From a virus, in IMG/VR virus record IMGVR_UViG_3300014953_000001, positions 1 to 6,078 of that record: 6,078 nt of DNA. The stretch is one strand, 5' to 3'. The notes under the pieces were generated by a model that was given only the letters and a program-made list of their open reading frames with translations, was not told the DNA's origin and searched no databases. The position numbers and the translations under genes are program-made. Below, piece by piece: positions 1 through 6,078 of this stretch. Positions within the stretch are counted from its first letter, which is position 1; every line of letters starts with the position of its first letter.

Positions 1-77
1 TTTTGCATCTGATGTTTCTTTGTATGTTTGTGCTAGCATCATAGGTAATTTGATGTCAGACATTTTCATACCGATGC
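1..77. repeat. Terminal redundancy, left copy (identical to 6002-6078)
   Basis: Base-by-base comparison: ttttgcatctgatgtttctttgtatgtttgtgctagcatcataggtaatttgatgtcagacattttcataccgatgc occurs at 1-77 and again at 6002-6078. This is a direct repeat at both window ends, the signature of a circular contig (overlap length 77). Confidence 0.97.
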
Positions 78-387
78 CTGTCCGGTTATTGTGTAGCCAG
101 CTGTTGTATAACCGAATTCCTCCGAAGAACATGAAGTGTTGTAATTTGAATGATCCGAACAGCGGCCCAAGTGTTGGTTGACTCAGTGTTTTGTTTATTA
201 GATTTATGTCTATGATATCTCCTTTTTGACAAAGTATCTTGCAGAACGGCACAAGCATTCCTACTCCGATTGTTGATCTGAACACTGTTGATATATCATG
301 AGTAGACATGTCATAGTCTCTCATTGCGACTTTCATCTTATTATTGTCGCCCAGCGTGTTTTTTCCTAAGGTTCTTACAATTGCCAT
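1..387 (-). CDS. VP1: Major capsid protein VP1 (F-like), N-terminal 129 codons; continues across the circular junction into 4439..6001
   Basis: Not in the supplied track because the ORF runs off the window start. The minus-strand ATG is at 387-385, 3 nt after the TAA of the upstream 77-aa ORF. My hand translation of 387->70 gives MAIVRTLGKNTLGDNNKMKVAMRDYDMSTHDISTVFRSTIGVGMLVPFCKILCQKGDIIDINLINKTLSQPTLGPLFGSFKLQHFMFFGGIRLYNSWLHNNRTGIG (106 codons, no stop). It continues at 69 with MKMSDIKLPMML..., the first residues of the 4439..6070 ORF (position 69 = 6070 through the overlap). The H-D-I-S ... G-x-L-x-P ... G-D block followed by a hydrophobic FF...R....W stretch is the N-terminal signature of microvirus F/VP1 proteins. 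Compare phiX174 F as I remember it: HDLSHLGF...IAGDSF...FYVPHRHVYG. Confidence 0.93.
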   Translation of the reverse strand, partial: MAIVRTLGKNTLGDNNKMKVAMRDYDMSTHDISTVFRSTIGVGMLVPFCKILCQKGDIIDINLINKTLSQPTLGPLFGSFKLQHFMFFGGIRLYNSWLHNNRTGIGMKMSDIKLPMMLAQTYKETSDAK

Positions 388-390
388 AGT

Positions 391-624
391 TTATTTCTCC
401 TCTTTTTTTGTTGTTTCTTTCTGTTTTTCCTCCCATTGTTCAGCTTCTTTGCAAGCATAGATCAGTGCTGCCACTAGATTCCAATCTGTTGCGTCGATTA
501 CTTTTTGGGCTTCTTCTTCTGATTGGAATACTTGCTCAGTAGCCAAGTGATTACCAATAGTAATGATAACTTCATCTGTTTCTGCGTCTTTTTTTCTGAT
601 TTTAAAGGCTTCTTTTAAGTTCAT
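391..624 (-). CDS. Hypothetical small protein, 77 aa, mildly acidic
   Basis: Complete ORF in the gene-dense minus-strand block. Its ATG is 5 nt after the stop of the preceding ORF (630-632), and its TAA (391-393) is 3 nt before the VP1 ATG. By my count it has 18 D/E against 12 K/R, with a Lys/Glu-rich tail. I recognise no motif. Confidence 0.6.
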   Translation of the reverse strand: MNLKEAFKIRKKDAETDEVIITIGNHLATEQVFQSEEEAQKVIDATDWNLVAALIYACKEAEQWEEKQKETTKKEEK

Positions 625-629
625 GATTT

Positions 630-830
630 TTATTTTTTTTGGTTAATATTGATTTTTGTACTGTCAACCGAACTAGTTGTTGTTTGTTCAGTTTTTTGAG
701 TACTGTTTTGATTGTTTTTGCTCACACTGAGTGACATTGTACAACTCTGTGCGGTTAATACTGCGGTTATGCTGATGATTGCAGTGCATATTATCTTTAT
801 GATTTCGTAAGTTATTTTCTTTTTATCCAT
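630..830 (-). CDS. Small predicted lipoprotein or single-pass membrane protein, 66 aa (track ORF 630..935 with the start moved to the internal ATG at 830)
   Basis: From Met36 of the 101-aa track ORF the product is MDKKKITYEIIKIICTAIISITAVLTAQSC/TMSLSVSKNNQNSTQKTEQTTTSSVDSTKININQKK. It has a basic n-region, an 18-20 residue hydrophobic core, then A-Q-S-C, which resembles the loose x-S-C lipoboxes common in Bacteroidota. A 36-residue Ser/Thr/Asn/Gln-rich tail follows. The ATG at 830 overlaps the stop of the upstream 88-aa ORF as ATGGATAA (823-830), a typical coupling arrangement. The longer 935 start would overlap that ORF by 113 nt in another frame. Confidence 0.6.
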   Translation of the reverse strand: MDKKKITYEIIKIICTAIISITAVLTAQSCTMSLSVSKNNQNSTQKTEQTTTSSVDSTKININQKK

Positions 831-1089
831 CGTTAAATAATTTAGTTTGGCAATTATTCCATTTTTCAAGGTTGATTTTTTCGTAATCGTAAACAGTTCT
901 ACATAGTAACCTCCTTTCTTGTCTATTAAATTCATACTCTTTTAATATTTCGTCGTTCCACATCTGATATGCATTGTCTTTTGTGTTTTTTTGCATATTC
1001 AGATACATGTGCCACTTTAGTTCTCGAAATGTATTGAATTTTTGTGCACCATATTTATAGTGTACAATTTTTTTCTTCTTTTTTATCAT
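823..1089 (-). CDS. Hypothetical protein, 88 aa, poly-Lys N-terminus (possibly the C-terminal part of a split 144-aa gene)
   Basis: Complete ORF MIKKKKKIVHYKYG... in the co-oriented small-ORF block. Its ATG lies inside the second copy of a 10-nt tandem duplication (see repeat 1081-1100). I recognise no motif. Confidence 0.5.
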   Translation of the reverse strand: MIKKKKKIVHYKYGAQKFNTFRELKWHMYLNMQKNTKDNAYQMWNDEILKEYEFNRQERRLLCRTVYDYEKINLEKWNNCQTKLFNDG

Positions 1090-1267
1090 TTTTTATCATT
1101 ACTTTATTGGTTTCTACTATGCATATAATTTCAAACGTACTTGTATCCATTGTTTCATTTGCGATTGCTATCGCTGTTTTGTAAGTCCATTTTGCCAGTA
1201 ATGGGAATGTTACTACTATTCCGTTGTCTTTTCTTCTTGTGATAATTGTCCAATTTGTTGCTGCCAT
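1055..1267 (-). CDS. Hypothetical protein, 70 aa (possibly the N-terminal part of a split 144-aa gene)
   Basis: This is the first ORF downstream of the predicted minus-strand promoter, with its ATG at 1267. The last 14 codons (MIKNDKKEEKNCTL) begin at the 10-nt tandem duplication, and 35 nt of them overlap the 88-aa ORF. I recognise no motif. Confidence 0.5.
   Translation of the reverse strand: MAATNWTIITRRKDNGIVVTFPLLAKWTYKTAIAIANETMDTSTFEIICIVETNKVMIKNDKKEEKNCTL
1081..1100. repeat. Exact 10-nt tandem duplication (ttttatcatt x2; minus strand AATGATAAAA x2)
   Basis: 1081-1090 and 1091-1100 are identical, and period-10 identity extends over 1079-1100. Each minus-strand copy carries an ATG. 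The first is in the 70-aa ORF frame and the second is the start of the 88-aa ORF. Confidence 0.95.
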
Positions 1268-1285
1268 AATTTTTTTGTTTTTATT

Positions 1286-1299
1286 GTTCCACGTGGAAC
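1286..1299. promoter_or_regulatory. Perfect 14-nt palindrome GTTCCACGTGGAAC in the leader of the small-ORF/VP1 operon
   Basis: gttccacgtggaac equals its own reverse complement. It lies 19 nt upstream of the ATG at 1267 and about 25-35 nt downstream of the predicted -7 box. It could be a dimeric protein-binding site, or a 5-bp stem with an ACGU loop in the transcript. Confidence 0.35.
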
Positions 1300-1328
1300 G
1301 GTTAATACTTTTGTTTTTTCTTACACTA

Positions 1329-1359
1329 CAAAGGTACGTAATTTTTCTGATTCTCCAAA
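1329..1359 (-). promoter_or_regulatory. Bacteroidota-type promoter (-33 TTTG / -7 TAnnTTTG) for the small-ORF + VP1 + VP3 transcription unit
   Basis: The minus strand reads ...AAATTTGgagaatcagaaaaattacgTAccTTTGtagtg... The TTTG is at 1359-1356, followed by a 19-nt spacer and then TACCTTTG at 1336-1329. This matches the Bacteroides consensus (TTTG and TAnnTTTG, Bayley et al. 2000) at a spacing I recall as acceptable. It sits at the 3' edge of the long non-coding region, about 60 nt upstream of the first ORF. The -7 octamer alone is expected about once or twice per 6 kb by chance. The correctly spaced TTTG and the location add the weight. Confidence 0.45.
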
Positions 1360-1413
1360 TTTCTCTGTTACTTTATAACTTTCTTTAACGTTTCCATAGC
1401 GCGAGCGACAAAT

Positions 1414-1792
1414 ACAGGGTTCTAGGGCGTTGCCCTAGAGCGTTAGCACCTTGATATCGCCAAAGGCGCATACCACGACCTTCGGTCGGGTACACGCCTG
1501 TCCTTAAACGGTTTCTGTAGGTAACAAATCTTTACTCTTTAGCTACTCTTACCGCCCTGTAAAATTAAAATAAAATATTCCGCATGGTATAGTCCGTTTG
1601 TTACGGACCAGATGTTATCGTGAAACGATAACTGATTGATAATCTGCATAGTGTGGAGGAAGCTCGGAGAGCTTTCGTAGAGTGAAGGTGTTTCGACACC
1701 GGAACGGCCGAGGTCGTTGACCGAGTAAAAATCCGCCGTAGGCGCTACCTAGAGTTGCATTTCAAGCATCTCGAGCGCAGCGAAGCCTCTAG
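1414..1792. other. GC-rich array of short hairpins in the VP4-to-small-ORF non-coding region (candidate complementary-strand origin and/or structured RNA)
   Basis: Hand-found perfect or near-perfect stems, plus-strand coordinates. H1: 1421-1428/1432-1439 (8 bp, loop gtt). H3: 1465-1498 (13 Watson-Crick pairs, one bulged base, and two C-A mismatches that become G-T/G-U wobbles on the gene-sense strand). H4: 1592-1597/1603-1608 (6 bp, 5-nt loop). H5: 1614-1620/1626-1632 (7-8 bp), nested inside 1609-1613/1642-1646. H6: 1660-1665/1669-1674 (6 bp). H7: 1687-1691/1696-1700 (5 bp, TTCG loop). H8: 1712-1715/1719-1722. H9: 1734-1737/1741-1744. Long-range pairs: 1414-1419/1555-1560 and 1749-1754/1787-1792. 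My base count for 1381-1800 is 201/420 G+C (48%), against 30-33% in two sampled coding lines. Confidence 0.6.
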
Positions 1793-2829
1793 AACGGACA
1801 GTAGGTCCTGTCTTTTAGTGAATAGAACGGATCTTTTTCCTCTCTGGCTATCACCCTTCTTTGATTTCGTTTTCTTTGTGTCAGATTTTGCAACTTATTC
1901 ATTCGGTTTATTGCTTTTTTTCGGATGATATCTTCTTCTACGTCACCGTGTAATGGTGCTCCTTCTTCGTTTTTTTGTCTTACCAGTGTTTCGTAGTAAT
2001 CTTTGTTCACTGTGTTAGCTTCTATTACTTCGAATCCTTTTACCCACTTGACTCCTTTATCTTCGGCATATAGCCATAGTAATTGTCTCTGATCGTCTGT
2101 ATATATGGCTGTTTTGTAGTATCTTGGTAATGGTAGATCTTGTCCGTTATGTGCTTTATATGTAATAATTGTTTTTTCTCCATTCCATCTGTGTTTTAGT
2201 TGGTTTTCCTTTGCATAGTTTGCTCCAAGCCCTTTGCTGCATAGTACTATTGATGTATAGTCAGGATTGTCTTCATCCTTTTTTGTCATGTATTTTGATA
2301 CATAGTTTATTGTTCTTTCATTGACATATCTTCCGTAGTATCTATACCCGTCTATCCAATTTTCATATAATAATTTTGTCAATTGCCATTTAGTTTGTCC
2401 TTTTCTTGCATAGTATAATCCGTGTAAATGTATTCTTCTCGTGTTGGTATGTCCTTTTTCTGTTACACACCAGTGTTTTACCGATTTACCTGTTTCTTTT
2501 CTGATTCTTTCCAGGAATAATCTGTGTATTTTTGTGATTATCTCGTTATCTTGCGATCCGTCGTTTTTAAAGCCATATCTTTTACAGATATATTCATATC
2601 TTTGTGGAGATACTGTTCCTGTAAAAAACACTGCATGAGGTGTTTCTTTCAGTTGTTCGTAGTTTCTGATTCTCCATTCTCTTCTCTTTTTTTTACGACA
2701 TTCAAAACAGTGTCCGCATTCTACTTCTACGTATCTGAATCTTTCGTCTGTGCATACAGGCGGATTCCACCTGTTCTTTCGATTAGGTAGAAACCGCTTG
2801 TTTAGTACTCTTTTTGTGAAGTAACACAT
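1789..2829 (-). CDS. VP4: Rolling-circle replication initiation protein VP4 (phiX174 A-like HUH endonuclease)
   Basis: 346-aa ORF with an N-terminal MC..., and the Cys cluster CGHCFECRKKKRREW. The rolling-circle motifs are in canonical order: motif-1-like AVFFTGTV, the HUH motif RIHLHGLYY, and the double-tyrosine motif INYVSKYMTK (Y-x-x-K-Y, as in phiX174 protein A), followed by CSKGLG. The ATG at 2829 is 1 nt after the TAA of VP2 (2831-2833). Confidence 0.95.
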   Translation of the reverse strand: MCYFTKRVLNKRFLPNRKNRWNPPVCTDERFRYVEVECGHCFECRKKKRREWRIRNYEQLKETPHAVFFTGTVSPQRYEYICKRYGFKNDGSQDNEIITKIHRLFLERIRKETGKSVKHWCVTEKGHTNTRRIHLHGLYYARKGQTKWQLTKLLYENWIDGYRYYGRYVNERTINYVSKYMTKKDEDNPDYTSIVLCSKGLGANYAKENQLKHRWNGEKTIITYKAHNGQDLPLPRYYKTAIYTDDQRQLLWLYAEDKGVKWVKGFEVIEANTVNKDYYETLVRQKNEEGAPLHGDVEEDIIRKKAINRMNKLQNLTQRKRNQRRVIAREEKDPFYSLKDRTYCPF

Positions 2830-2830
2830 A

Positions 2831-3934
2831 TTACTTGTTTGGTTTTCTAATTACTTTTTCCAGTCTCTTGAGTAGAGATTGTGCTTGTTTGAACTTACTC
2901 ACAGATCCTATTATCTCTGACAATTGATCGATTCCTCCGTAGATCCATTCTCTGAGGTTTTTTTGGTTTTCGTTGTCTAGATGTCCTTTTCCGAGTTCAT
3001 AATCTTTTGCGATCTTGTCCACCATAGCTGCTGCTTGTTCTTTTGCCGCTTCAGCAGACATTCTCTTTGTTACCATCTCGTAGTAGAAGTTCTCTACTTC
3101 TTTTTGGATCTTTCTTGCGGTGTTGTAGTTGACGTCTACGATCGAGTCTTGTACTGCTCCTTCTTTTTGTAATAACGCTATCTCCGCCACTAGCTTTGCT
3201 ACTCTTTCCTCTTGAGTTTCGTCTAGATACTTTGTGTTCAGCATCTCTTGATTCCAGAGTTCGACTGCTTTCTGTGCATTGGCGTTTGCTTCCGTTACGT
3301 TTGCCGCTGCTATATTTTCCTTGCTTAATTGGATTCTGTTTTCAATCTCCTGCCATTTATTTTCAAGATCCTGCCCTTTTGTGTCTACTCCTGCGATTTT
3401 ATTTGCTTCTGCCAATGTTTTAGCTGTTTCAGCACTTGCAAGTCTGTTTTGCGCCTCTATCTGCTTCAGTTGTAGTCCCATTGCTTGTTGTTGTAGTGCT
3501 GCTTCTACAGGATTCATCTTCGGTCCGCTTGGCTGCATTCCGTCTCCGCCCGCTGTGCTTGCCGCTTGCCCTCCTCCGTTGCCGTACATAAGACCTACGC
3601 TTAGCCCTGCTTTTTCCATCTCGGCTCTTTGTGCTCCAAAGTTGGTGTCTTTCCACATTTGTAGGTTCCGCTTATATTCAGCATCTGCTGCTTGTTGTCC
3701 ATAGTTGTATTGAAGGCTCATTCCTTCCTTTTCATATTCCCATGCTTGTTGCATTAGTTTCTGTTTGTCTTTTAATCCATCATCGCCTTTGAATAATCCT
3801 CCGATTAGTCCGAGTCCTCCTCCGACTATTCCTCCGATCTCTGTTCCTAGTCCAGGGATTATACTTCCGATCGATGCTCCTGTTGCAGCTCCGGATAATA
3901 TTCCGTTAGCTCCTCCTTTTACGTCTAGCGCCAT
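2831..3934 (-). CDS. VP2: DNA pilot / minor capsid protein VP2 (H-like)
   Basis: 367-aa ORF. The N-terminal ~50 aa form a Gly/Ala/Ile-rich GxxxG-type glycine zipper (GGANGILSGAATGASIGSIIPGLGTEIGGIVGGGLGLIGGLFKG). The remainder is Ala/Gln/Glu/Lys/Asn-rich and looks helical or coiled coil. This is the architecture of the phiX174 H-type pilot protein and of VP2 in non-phiX microviruses. It lies directly upstream of VP4. Confidence 0.85.
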   Translation of the reverse strand: MALDVKGGANGILSGAATGASIGSIIPGLGTEIGGIVGGGLGLIGGLFKGDDGLKDKQKLMQQAWEYEKEGMSLQYNYGQQAADAEYKRNLQMWKDTNFGAQRAEMEKAGLSVGLMYGNGGGQAASTAGGDGMQPSGPKMNPVEAALQQQAMGLQLKQIEAQNRLASAETAKTLAEANKIAGVDTKGQDLENKWQEIENRIQLSKENIAAANVTEANANAQKAVELWNQEMLNTKYLDETQEERVAKLVAEIALLQKEGAVQDSIVDVNYNTARKIQKEVENFYYEMVTKRMSAEAAKEQAAAMVDKIAKDYELGKGHLDNENQKNLREWIYGGIDQLSEIIGSVSKFKQAQSLLKRLEKVIRKPNK

Positions 3935-3990
3935 AATAATAAAATTTTACATTCTTCGCGCTTACTTTTGAAGAAGCGCTACTTATATTC

Positions 3991-4018
3991 ACTTGATATA
4001 ATATGCTATATGCGTACT
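3991..4018 (-). other. dif-like 28-mer (candidate XerC/XerD recombination site, attP-like)
   Basis: The minus strand of 4018->3991 is AGTACGCATATAGCATATTATATCAAGT. Aligned without gaps to E. coli dif GGTGCGCATAATGTATATTATGTTAAAT it matches at 20 of 28 positions (my count). Matches include CGCATA in the XerC arm and ATATTAT spanning the central region and the start of the XerD arm. The site is in the VP3-VP2 intergenic region. Confidence 0.3.
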
Positions 4019-4078
4019 GCGCTTTTTTGGCTTTAAAAAGCGGATATAAATGTTTACATCCGCCTTTTTCGCATATAG
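4006..4078. repeat. 9-bp inverted repeat ctatatgcg (4006-4014) / cgcatatag (4070-4078) bracketing two internal hairpins
   Basis: The arms are exact reverse complements. The left arm overlaps the XerC-like arm of the dif-like site. Enclosed are hairpin 4021-4027/4035-4041 (gcttttt/aaaaagc) and the terminator hairpin 4040-4063. A further hairpin lies at 3958-3963/3974-3979, extendable through 3965-3967/3971-3973. Confidence 0.7.
4031..4063 (-). terminator. Intrinsic (rho-independent) terminator after the VP3-like gene; near-symmetric, so potentially bidirectional
   Basis: Minus strand: GCGGAT-GTAAACATTTAT-ATCCGC followed at once by TTTTTAAAG. The stem is 4040-4045/4058-4063 (6 bp, 4 G-C), extendable by 3 A-T pairs after a 1x1 mismatch. 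It lies 35 nt downstream of the stop at 4098. On the plus strand the same stem is followed by cTTTTT. Confidence 0.55.
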
Positions 4079-4097
4079 TGTTCGTAGTCGTACCCGA

Positions 4098-4436
4098 CTA
4101 GTTGTCTCTAGTTGGATTTGGTTCAGTTACTCCTCCTTCGGTTTGACTTTCTGCTGTCTTTGGTGCTTCGGTCTCTCCCTTTTTGAGGTATTCATTTAGT
4201 TTGTAGTTATTGACTCTATCCATTGCATCCATAGCTAAAGCCCACTTGTCCGTCCGTATGTTGCAATCATCTCTTACTCCTGCTTGTTTAGGCGTATAGA
4301 TCGTAGGTGCTCCGTCCGTTAATGGTTCATTTTCGTCAAGGATTCTTTGGATTTTTTTGATCAAGGTTTCGCCTTTTTCTGTCATCTCGATCATTCCTTC
4401 GAAGTTGTTTACTCTTATTTTGTTAATTTTTTTCAT
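4098..4436 (-). CDS. VP3-like internal scaffolding protein, 112 aa
   Basis: The ATG at 4436 is 2 nt after the VP1 TAA (4439-4441). The central block GAPTIYTPKQAGVRDDCNIRTDKWALAMDAMD resembles, from memory, the conserved xIYTxRxDGVxPxYDIRTDRxExA block of gokushovirus-type VP3 scaffolding proteins. The C-terminal tail is acidic and Thr/Pro-rich. The assignment is by recollection of the motif, not by search. Confidence 0.6.
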   Translation of the reverse strand: MKKINKIRVNNFEGMIEMTEKGETLIKKIQRILDENEPLTDGAPTIYTPKQAGVRDDCNIRTDKWALAMDAMDRVNNYKLNEYLKKGETEAPKTAESQTEGGVTEPNPTRDN

Positions 4437-4438
4437 GA

Positions 4439-6078
4439 TTATAAGAATGGAATTTGTTTAGCACTATAGTTACCTCTTCTCGTTGCCTGTATTACTGTTT
4501 GTACCCAGAAGTTTTGGCTTGTTAAATCTGTATCTGCGAAGATCTCGATGTATTTCTGTGGATCGATATATGTGGTCAGGTCTTTGATCGTGTTATTATC
4601 TCCTACATTGTAACGTCTGTTCAATACCATGAAGTCTAATGCTTCTCCTACCGCGAAATCTCCGAATGTGCGATTGTAGTTGGTCATGTAGTCGATCCAA
4701 GCTACTGTCTTGTTGGCAGTTAGATGTTTTAAATTACTTATAGAGCTACCATTTTCGTATGCGGATGTCTCTCCGACCATCTGTTCTTGAATAAGATCTT
4801 GGTAGCCGATTCCGTCAAGTGCTGGCTTGTGTAAATCGTCGATTGTTTGTAAATTTAAATCAAAGTCATTGCCTTGTGAATAGTCGATCATCGGTGTGAT
4901 AGCCATCAGTCCCATGATGTATCCTGGCTCTTCGCATTGATAATGTATATGTCCGTTGTTTAGTGGTTTGCCTCCTCGCCCGATTGCCGCAATATCTCCA
5001 AGTGGTTGACTTCCGTATGCTGTTTCTGTCGCACTTTTTGATATCACTTCGTCGAATTCGATATATTGTGTCATACCTCCGATAAACACAGGTGTTTCGG
5101 GTCTGTCAAGGTACTTGCCTGCCGTGTATACTGTCTCCAGCCAATCTCGGTATGTACCTCCCGATACTGCGATCCTGTTCAGCATGTTGTATACTTTCTG
5201 TTGTAAGTTCAGAGCATCCATTGTCAGCTTTCCGTCATTGGCTGTGATGTCGATACTTGTTATATCTGAGATGCTCCCTGCTCCATCGATCCAATCTGTT
5301 TGTACCCAATTGTTGAATATATCGCTGTCGTATGTTTTTAGCAGCATTCCTCCTAATTTATTACTTTGAGCTGCTACTAAGTCATCAAACATTTTTTTTA
5401 ATTCTGCTGACCCGTTTTGAGGTGCGTCCAAATTTGCCCCATGTAGGATTAGCGTTTCGTTACCTTTTTTGTGCAGAATTACATCTCTAATCTGATCAAG
5501 CAGTTTTAAATCATATTGTTTTAGTTGAGTGTTTATATATTTGGTTATATTCCTATCAAATTCAACGTTTACAATTTCTTCTATTACGGTTGGAATTTTG
5601 TCGATTGTAATTGTATCTGTTGTTGGATTCGAACTTAGGTTCGCCATAGTTGTGAGTACCTCACTTCCATTTTTTTTACCTAGTACTTTTACATTTTTCC
5701 AATAATTTATCCAATTGCTCGATTCGTCAAATGATCCTACGGTAGTGTTATTCGTTGGATACAACTTCATATTTTCTGCTGGGATTTTGTAGATGTTAGG
5801 TCCTATTGATAATCTACTTAATCCTCCTCTTATCATGTAGAACTCTTTTTCTTGTGTATTTGCAAAGAAATTTTTAAAGATATCTAGGTATAAAAGTAAT
5901 GGAACTCCATTTTTACATACTCCTTGTGTTGCATTCGTTCCTGTTCTTCTTGAACTACTCCAGCCTAGATATTTGTATAAGGCTGATGATGAAATATTTG
6001 TTTTTGCATCTGATGTTTCTTTGTATGTTTGTGCTAGCATCATAGGTAATTTGATGTCAGACATTTTCATACCGATGC
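4439..6078 (-). CDS. VP1: Major capsid protein VP1 (F-like), C-terminal 521 codons plus the 77-nt duplicated segment; full gene = complement(join(4439..6001,1..387))
   Basis: The track ORF 4439..6070 (543 aa) starts at an internal Met. The frame stays open to the window end and continues at 78..387 through the circular junction. The full gene is 1950 nt = 649 aa + TAA. It is the largest gene and has the typical VP1 size, the N-terminal F/VP1 signature (see 1..387), and adjacent scaffold and pilot genes. Confidence 0.95.
   Translation of the reverse strand, partial: IGMKMSDIKLPMMLAQTYKETSDAKTNISSSALYKYLGWSSSRRTGTNATQGVCKNGVPLLLYLDIFKNFFANTQEKEFYMIRGGLSRLSIGPNIYKIPAENMKLYPTNNTTVGSFDESSNWINYWKNVKVLGKKNGSEVLTTMANLSSNPTTDTITIDKIPTVIEEIVNVEFDRNITKYINTQLKQYDLKLLDQIRDVILHKKGNETLILHGANLDAPQNGSAELKKMFDDLVAAQSNKLGGMLLKTYDSDIFNNWVQTDWIDGAGSISDITSIDITANDGKLTMDALNLQQKVYNMLNRIAVSGGTYRDWLETVYTAGKYLDRPETPVFIGGMTQYIEFDEVISKSATETAYGSQPLGDIAAIGRGGKPLNNGHIHYQCEEPGYIMGLMAITPMIDYSQGNDFDLNLQTIDDLHKPALDGIGYQDLIQEQMVGETSAYENGSSISNLKHLTANKTVAWIDYMTNYNRTFGDFAVGEALDFMVLNRRYNVGDNNTIKDLTTYIDPQKYIEIFADTDLTSQNFWVQTVIQATRRGNYSAKQIPFL
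6002..6078. repeat. Terminal redundancy, right copy (identical to 1-77)
   Basis: Same 77-mer as 1-77. Position 6001 (t) is the last unique base. Confidence 0.97.

Follow-up and report, generated by a model that had tools for sequence, protein, structure and literature searches.

A conserved hairpin array next to the Rep gene of gut microviruses as a candidate replication-origin module lying antisense to the genes in one class

Introduction

The DNA considered here is IMG/VR virus record IMGVR_UViG_3300014953_000001, positions 1 to 6,078, a complete circular microvirus genome in which positions 1-78 are repeated at 6001-6078; this whole stretch is called the window below. Its minus strand carries every gene, namely those of the major capsid protein, the pilot-like protein VP2, the rolling-circle replication initiator VP4 (Rep), and a block of small open reading frames (ORFs; Table 1). 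Between the VP4 stop (1789) and the start of the next ORF (1267) lies a gap of 521 nucleotides (nt; 1268-1788) in which no ORF exceeds 36 codons, and an array of hairpins occupies positions 1396-1633 of it. To our knowledge, the origins of Microviridae have been defined experimentally only in the phiX174/G4 group, and those of gut and environmental microviruses are essentially unknown. This article describes the array, its spread among microviruses and its strand polarity, and proposes that it is, on balance, probably a cis-acting replication-origin module that would work as folded single-stranded DNA (ssDNA) on the plus strand of the window. In a full-text search of the literature, neither the element itself nor Microviridae of complementary-strand polarity were found to be described.

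Table 1. Features of the window, with positions and strands.
Feature	Position	Strand	Remarks
Core hairpin array	1396-1633	+	Antisense to genes
Mini-hairpin motif GCGCGAGC	1399-1406	+	GCGNNAGC type; all four bases occur at second loop position among relatives
Hairpin Ha, TCTAGGGC-GTT-GCCCTAGA	1421-1439	+
Single-stranded heart GCGTTAGCACCTTGATAT	1440-1457	+	Near-invariant
Mini-hairpin motif GCGTTAGC	1440-1447	+	Within heart; directly before near-invariant ACCTTGATAT
CTTGATAT	1450-1457	+	Within heart; includes phiX174 cleavage site TTG/ATA
Hairpin Hb, CGCC-AAA-GGCG	1458-1468	+	4-bp stem, triloop
Hairpin Hc (H3)	1465-1498	+	Conserved tandem C·A/A·C internal loop
Variable pyrimidine-rich hairpin	1517-1553	+	GGTAA...TTACC in window, AGGTAG...CTACCT in most relatives; read by eye
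Conserved CCCTGTAAAATTAAAATAAA tract	1555-1575	+	End of universal part of element
Hairpin Hd, GTCCGT-TTGTT-ACGGAC	1592-1608	+
Hairpin He, GTTATCGT-GAA-ACGATAAC	1614-1632	+	GAA triloop
Accessory GC-rich insert (module 2)	1634-1788	+
Hairpin H6, AAGCTC-GGA-GAGCTT	1660-1674	+
Mini-hairpin motifs GCGCAGC; GCGAAGC	1775-1781; 1780-1786	+
AT-rich leader of small-ORF block	1268-1395	-	Motifs kept across class A
Bacteroidota-type promoter	-33 TTTG 1359-1356; -7 TACCTTTG 1336-1329	-	Spacer 19 nt; putative, read by eye
Hairpin GTTCC-ACGT-GGAAC	1286-1299		About 20 nt upstream of first small ORF
Small ORFs	from 1267 downwards	-
VP4 (Rep)	1789-2829	-	Pfam PF23343 REP_ORF2-G2P; PHROG 942 replication initiation protein; directly adjoins hairpin element
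Pilot-like protein (VP2)	2831-3934	-
Second CTTGATAT site, in ACTTGATATAATATGCTATATG	3985-4012	+	Non-coding gap upstream of VP2; alternative candidate nick site
Major capsid protein	4439-6070	-

A structured core within a GC-rich gap

A preliminary description of the window, made from its letters alone, had singled out this gap as rich in GC and in hairpins, and as compositionally foreign. The GC excess is real (47.9% for 1381-1800 against 38.3% for the genome); the word foreign overstates it, as windows within the VP2 coding sequence reach 51-53% GC. Of five stems reported as perfect, four are so (Ha, Hd, He and H6), as is a GGTGT-TTCG-ACACC hairpin at 1686-1699, while the fifth, Hc, is interrupted by a tandem C·A/A·C. 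The excess of hairpins over chance was confirmed by counting stems of at least 6 bp with loops of 3-7 nt in the region and in 1000 dinucleotide shuffles: 8 nested matches (4 distinct) are present, the shuffle mean is 0.57, and none of the 1000 shuffles reaches 8.

Folding against shuffled controls on both strands divides the gap in two. The entire region has a z of about -3 on either strand; folded as DNA, 1396-1633 reaches -5.9 on the plus strand and -4.4 on the minus strand, whereas 1634-1800 gives -0.5 and -1.3, and shuffled sequence does as well. Folding beyond chance is therefore a property of the core and not of the whole array as first drawn. Nor did the two long-range pairings once thought to organize the hairpins find support from covariation: in ACAGGG/CCCTGT only the GGG/CCC part is invariant, the second pair being broken in many relatives, and CTAGAG/CTCTAG never varies in the 11 available copies.

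Conservation and distribution of the core

Only 1396-1633 is a conserved, significantly structured element. It retains 84-92% identity in GenBank microviruses whose VP4 shows only about 39% amino acid identity to that of the window (39% in Tortoise microvirus 13). In a blastn search of GenBank phages, 1268-1633 matches at 84-87% in Tortoise microvirus 13, Dulem virus 218 and two rat microviruses; in these genomes the conserved block abuts the VP4 stop, and 1634-1788 is therefore an insert. Over 50,697 phage records, the blastn matches were to gut microviruses only, with none in Bullavirinae.

Scanning IMG/VR and public metagenomes for patterns, with a profile search as confirmation, raised the number of contigs that bear the element to 143, nearly all of them microvirus genomes of 5-6.5 kb. 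Six further GenBank genomes retain only the central heart. The element is known in all from about 150 contigs and GenBank genomes. There is one copy per genome, next to Rep, at a position that is fixed within each class. Five contigs (L031, L203, L213, L262 and L017) have neither Hd nor He, which limits the universal part to about 1396-1575. The heart is exact in all but a handful of the contigs whose element was found with other patterns, and in more distant microviruses it is the sole part that can be aligned. Relatives of the window's own class (class A, defined below) that do not have this sequence still have a hairpin-rich gap after Rep.

The 18-mer of the heart occurs 61 times in 185,579 bacterial and archaeal species genomes, and profile search recognized no true copy among these matches. 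All 61 being due to chance, three candidates were ruled out: host-derived sequence, a copy of a host non-coding RNA (ncRNA), and identity with a bacterial attachment site (attB). An assembly artefact was also ruled out, since the element turns up at a set place, and with ordered variation, in about 150 independent contigs that come from many studies. Foreign or chimeric DNA is likewise rejected for this region. Over the whole window, neither strand gave a match in Rfam 15 at E<=1, and a scan for tRNA and tmRNA found none.

Several contigs are irregular. L025 is a head-to-tail dimer with two element copies 6013 nt apart, and both it and L107 show repeats across the contig. In L204 and L217, a partial tandem duplication of the core middle, about 200 nt after the core, replaces most of module 2. 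It seems that this region either duplicates readily or makes assemblies collapse at the conserved core. In L216 and L246 (coverage 1.8-2.0x), the element lies beside long ORFs that do not look microviral and do not have the usual skew; the two are probably chimeras whose parts were brought together in assembly at the conserved core, although the element could alternatively be present outside microviruses.

Covariation and strand polarity

Pairing was followed helix by helix on profile alignments, divergent subtypes being misaligned in a global alignment, and was counted over 95 distinct alignable cores. Across the 35 pairs of five helices, 98.8% of cells are paired. Shuffling the partners gives 95.6%, with none of 500 shuffles reaching the observed value, and sliding them gives 31-42%. 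Both sides have changed in 12 of the 35 stem pairs, a number that none of the 500 shuffles reaches either. In distant subtypes, entire hairpins are swapped for unrelated hairpins at the same positions. The covariation anticipated among relatives is thus present in the core stems, and is seen neither for the long-range pairings nor for 1634-1788.

The changes can be read stem by stem. In Ha, the top pair goes from C-G to T-A and the second from C-G to A-T; some relatives exchange GGGC-GTT-GCCC for GGGG-CATA-CCCC, and divergent subtypes carry hairpins of unrelated sequence at this place. Hb covaries among subtypes as CGGC-GAA-GCCG, CGGC-AGA-GCCG, CGGC-GGA-GCCG, CGAC-GAA-GTCG, CGCC-GAA-GGCG and CGGTC-GGA-GACCG, and competes with the lower stem of Hc for GGCG. 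Hc has compensatory changes at 1471/1492 (T-A to C-G) and from CGACC/GGTCG to CGATC/GATCG or CGGCC/GGCCG; in class B (see below) its place is taken by TCGC-TTT-AGCGA. The variable hairpin at 1517-1553 is a perfect 14-bp stem in L031. Hd changes from GTCCG to GACCG/CGGTC and to ATCCG/CGGAT, and in He one pair is A-T or T-A at near parity (48 versus 46 sequences) and a C-G pair also becomes T-A.

Changes on one side of a stem tell the strands apart. Over distinct variants, 20 of them leave a G·T on the plus strand of the window and 0 an A·C (Hc has 10 G·T cells, Hd 4 and He 5, all with no A·C, and Ha has one T·G variant). The mismatches of Hc had been taken as a sign of selection on the gene-sense strand, a view that these 20 of 20 changes do not sustain, and the polarity that was then left unresolved can now be assigned to the plus strand, antisense to the genes. 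As read from these substitutions, the selected strand is that one, and neither gene-sense DNA nor mRNA.

The small motifs agree in strand. Mini-hairpin motifs, here GCGNNAGC or GCGNAGC and written GCG(N)NAGC together, have been defined and placed at the complementary-strand origins of microviruses, G4 having GCGAAAGC and St-1 and alpha3 having GCGTTAGC (PMC13037366). There are four in 1396-1788 on the plus strand and none on the minus strand, against a shuffle mean of 0.37, and 0 of 2000 shuffles reach four; over all 143 elements the count is 280 versus 0. The loops of the element are mostly triloops (GAA, GGA, AAA, GTT), and these, together with the GCG(N)NAGC motifs, suit DNA hairpins better than RNA.

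Orientation with respect to genes and skew

The element is found both ways round. In Rep clusters 0 and 1 (99 contigs; class A, that of the window) it is antisense to all genes; in Rep clusters 2 and 3 (13 contigs; class B) it runs in the same direction as the genes, with the pilot gene on one side and Rep on the other. The Rep of class B, 497-611 amino acids long, has no BLAST similarity to that of the window. The six extra GenBank genomes are evenly split, with three antisense and three co-directional.

What stays constant is the composition of the strand. Setting aside a few short, low-coverage or apparently chimeric contigs, the third-codon positions on the element strand show T>A (about -0.3 to -0.7) and G>C in every genome, and the gene strand of the window shows the opposite skew (A3 43-52%, T3 11-22%). 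Phages whose virion strand is known bear the same signature on that strand: alpha3 with -0.59/+0.07, Chp2 with -0.32/+0.21 and SpV4 with -0.29/+0.65. Such an NNT bias of ssDNA phages has been ascribed to cytosine deamination (PMC3278643). Motifs like the heart were also sought in Chp2, phiMH2K and SpV4, with no decisive outcome. Among cultured phages, the Bdellovibrio gokushovirus phiMH2K (L196, NC_002643) has more A than T and more C than G at the third codon positions of its gene strand (capsid +0.34/-0.64), which is like the window's class and opposite to Chp2, SpV4 and alpha3.

One and the same subtype of the element can occur in both gene orientations (L309 versus L310), and the window and L014, whose genes are oppositely oriented, share 75 identical nt within it. 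The module has therefore been exchanged between phage classes, and the exchanged module is always on the T-rich strand.

A candidate origin read from folded ssDNA

Hairpin selection on one strand, mini-hairpins of DNA type, adjacency to Rep, and an orientation that follows the ssDNA skew and not the genes are what lead us to infer an origin function for 1396-1633. How would such a module work? After infection, the packaged circle would be coated by the single-stranded DNA-binding protein (SSB) of the host, under which Ha, Hb, Hc, Hd, He and the GCG(N)NAGC mini-hairpins would stay folded, leaving the invariant GCGTTAGCACCTTGATAT exposed. Host primase or RNA polymerase would then start the complementary strand at this exposed GCGTTAGCACCTTGATAT, as at the (-) origins of G4, St-1 and alpha3. 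The same module may also bear the nick site of VP4 (Rep), CTTG/ATAT. A priming signal read by the host would explain why it is shared among phages with very different Reps.

Among the analogies first offered for the gap, that with complementary-strand origins fits best, although it assumed the gene-sense strand and the whole extent of the gap. Like the (-) origins of G4, St-1 and alpha3 in the Bullavirinae, the element is a non-coding cluster of stable hairpins, including a mini-hairpin of GCGNNAGC type, on the strand that skew suggests is packaged. The GCGTTAGC of St-1 and alpha3 is identical in the element, and was confirmed on the alpha3 virion strand at position 5048, in the G-H intergenic region; CGGCGAAGCCG of element relatives, at Hb, is close to CGGCGAAAGCCG of G4. 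The two differ in that nothing beyond the motif can be aligned, with no homology in the 50,697 phage records by blastn, in that the element has about six hairpins over 240 nt against about three there, and in that it is antisense to genes in the window. Its host is also probably a member of the Bacteroidota, whose priming enzymes are not known to have been studied on such templates.

A likeness to the 30-nt viral-strand origin of phiX174 (CAACTTG/ATATTAATAACACTATAGACCAC) is confined to the cleavage region. A putative Rep cleavage motif CTTG/ATA is found on the plus strand in CTTGATAT at 1450-1457, within CACCTTGATATCG (1447-1459); the same CTTGATAT, with its cleavage site, was checked at the annotated rep_origin of phiX174, and in each case ACCAC follows 19 nt downstream with a small GC hairpin right after it. 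Unlike the phiX174 origin, the element is non-coding and not within the Rep gene, and the window has a second CTTGATAT site at 3992. This second site, ACTTGATATAATA (3991-4003), is no worse a match to the phiX174 nick region than the heart. Over 60 class A genomes retain it, in every case on the strand of the element, and the two would be equally good nick-site candidates. Similarity over the whole length of the phiX174 origin is no better than chance, 243 of 300 shuffles reaching at least the 18 of 30 matches observed, and serves as no more than a lead.

The filamentous Ff phages (M13, f1, fd) have a single non-coding region with about five hairpins on the packaged strand, in which the packaging signal is found along with both origins, (-) and (+). 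The belief that known origins have one to three hairpins, and so differ from such an array, consequently does not hold. Ff phages and the window have a single non-coding hairpin array in common, but the two families are unrelated, with no sequence similarity, and Ff genes are virion-sense. Among small microviruses, the reekeekee- and roodoodooviruses have conserved intergenic hairpins that have been described as candidates for negative-strand initiation (PMC9865509). These too are by Rep and show compensatory substitutions; theirs, however, are one or two hairpins in one clade, whereas the element of the window is larger and spans deeply divergent classes and both gene orientations.

Since the element would be on the packaged strand while it is antisense to the genes, the window's class would package the complement of its coding strand, as the sequences suggest. 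We see an about even chance that a large gut clade (about 100 contigs examined) is made up of "negative-sense" Microviridae, which would have become so through an inverted or swapped-in, self-contained origin cassette with the priming hairpins and perhaps the Rep nick site, exchanged between classes with unrelated-looking proteins. This cassette alone would decide which strand is displaced and packaged.

Alternative readings

The strongest competitor, itself unlikely, is a structured ncRNA transcribed from the plus strand, antisense in the window's class and within the sense transcript in the other, which might act as a regulator, a decoy or a primer RNA. Several covarying hairpins with G·U-compatible changes on the plus strand are what such an RNA would show; RNA folding z is also negative, and a gene with its own promoter could sit either way round. 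There is, however, no Rfam match at the threshold given above, a scan of both strands for sigma-70 promoters and terminators found nothing above shuffle expectation, and no good Bacteroidota-type promoter is seen by eye on the plus strand. The loops, mostly GNA/AAA triloops, and the GCG(N)NAGC motifs are of a kind usual in stable hairpins of DNA and not of RNA, the element of L031 is wedged between two ORFs with no space for signals of its own, and the constant match of orientation to the T-rich strand is left unexplained. An independent ncRNA thus explains less than an origin does.

Near-identical sequence in phages without protein BLAST similarity, an orientation tied to the single-stranded strand, variable flanking hairpin modules and partial duplications would also be expected of a selfish, ssDNA-dependent mobile cassette inserted in fixed orientation, like the non-autonomous hairpin elements mobilized by IS200/IS605. 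We regard this as improbable. The element is single-copy and fixed by Rep within each class, encodes no transposase, and has no real match among the 61 found in bacterial and archaeal species genomes, and where relatives do not have it, a comparable hairpin region takes its place; the multiple copies, variable sites and host-genome copies of IS200/IS605-type elements were not found.

A 3' untranslated region (UTR) or terminator of VP4, combined with a regulatory leader for the small ORFs and acting in gene-sense RNA, has still less to recommend it. Its appeal is that the array sits straight after the VP4 stop and ahead of a Bacteroidota-type promoter, and that the tandem mismatch of Hc becomes G·U/U·G on the gene-sense strand. 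Yet the opposite strand is favoured by each of the 20 changes on one side of a stem, no U-tract was seen behind a hairpin, and the sole terminator-like site in 1200-1900 (1283-1302, plus strand) is outside the core and occurs at shuffle level. The other class, moreover, has the element inverted relative to its genes and upstream of Rep. Wobble polarity and this inverted placement contradict the structured VP4 3' UTR that was once entertained.

Gut microviruses are known in provirus forms, and in some contigs bacterial genes adjoin the phage (L252 has gyrA and a TPR protein, L235 a weak SusD-like match), but an attachment site for Bacteroidota chromosomes (attP or dif-like) is very improbable: the phage-bacterial junctions in L252, L235 and L211 lie away from the element, the heart is in context in no bacterial genome, with no host match, and a recombination site needs no six covarying hairpins. 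Joins between microvirus and bacterial sequence were seen in L252 (a class B phage), L235, L211, L242, L249 and L269, never with the junction at the element; these contigs may be Bacteroidota proviruses or assembly chimeras.

Evidence that weighs against an origin on the plus strand

Several observations count against the proposed replication origin and the polarity that it implies. The invariant tandem C·A/A·C in Hc, which is G·T/T·G on the other strand, is the sole feature contrary to plus-strand polarity. The link between orientation and skew comes from about two deep classes and a few apparent exchanges, and hence from few independent events; the spectrum of rare alleles in the Rep genes of both classes is noisy and does not clearly show C>T and G>A to differ as expected. 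The plus strand has two copies of CTTGATAT, so that the nick site is not pinned down, and the heart matches the 30-nt phiX174 origin at 18 of 30 positions, which is chance level, three sites in the genome reaching 18. Finally, the Microviridae so far described are taken to have virion-sense genes, and genes on the complementary strand are essentially unknown (PMC3394797), which makes the polarity implied here an unusual one to claim.

Module 2 and other non-coding features

The insert at 1634-1788 is missing in most relatives and present in just 11 near-identical copies. Its first 40 nt repeat the core motif CTGCATAGTGT, a hairpin follows, and it ends in GCGAAGC. The copies are too alike for covariation; H6 shows one T·G on the plus strand, and a possible A·C is present elsewhere. 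In other lineages the same place next to Rep is filled by other hairpin modules. This part of the array as first described is hence an insert of a narrow sublineage, without energetic or covariation support, and looks like an accessory, expandable part of it.

On the other side of the core, the promoter call in the leader presumes the consensus that we take Bacteroides promoters to have. Bacteroidota hosts are suggested both by this putative promoter and by the gyrA and SusD-like neighbours that some contigs have. The arms of the leader hairpin at 1286-1299 covary in relatives (GTTTC...GAAAC) while its central four bases are free to vary; it may be a regulatory hairpin or a further piece of the origin array.

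Two more gaps are non-coding. The one upstream of the pilot gene (VP2), at 3935-4097, has a hairpin GCGGAT...ATCCGC (about 4036-4076) between an A-run and a T-run, resembling a bidirectional terminator. A third, of about 320 nt (71-390), separates the stop of a 77-amino-acid ORF (391) from the capsid start (6070 = 70) and has no listed ORF of more than 53 codons. It may hold an integration site, since the junction to bacterial genes in contig L211 is just upstream of the capsid gene.

Significance

The element provides a concrete and widely conserved origin candidate with a defined strand, motifs and hairpins, as well as a sequence marker for the packaged strand. One origin module among very different Reps points to an origin that is dictated by the host and exchangeable. 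If the proposed polarity is true, the genes of an abundant class of gut microviruses are complementary to the virion strand, against the textbook view of a positive-sense family, with consequences for the reading of strand-specific virome data, of mutation spectra and of codon usage.

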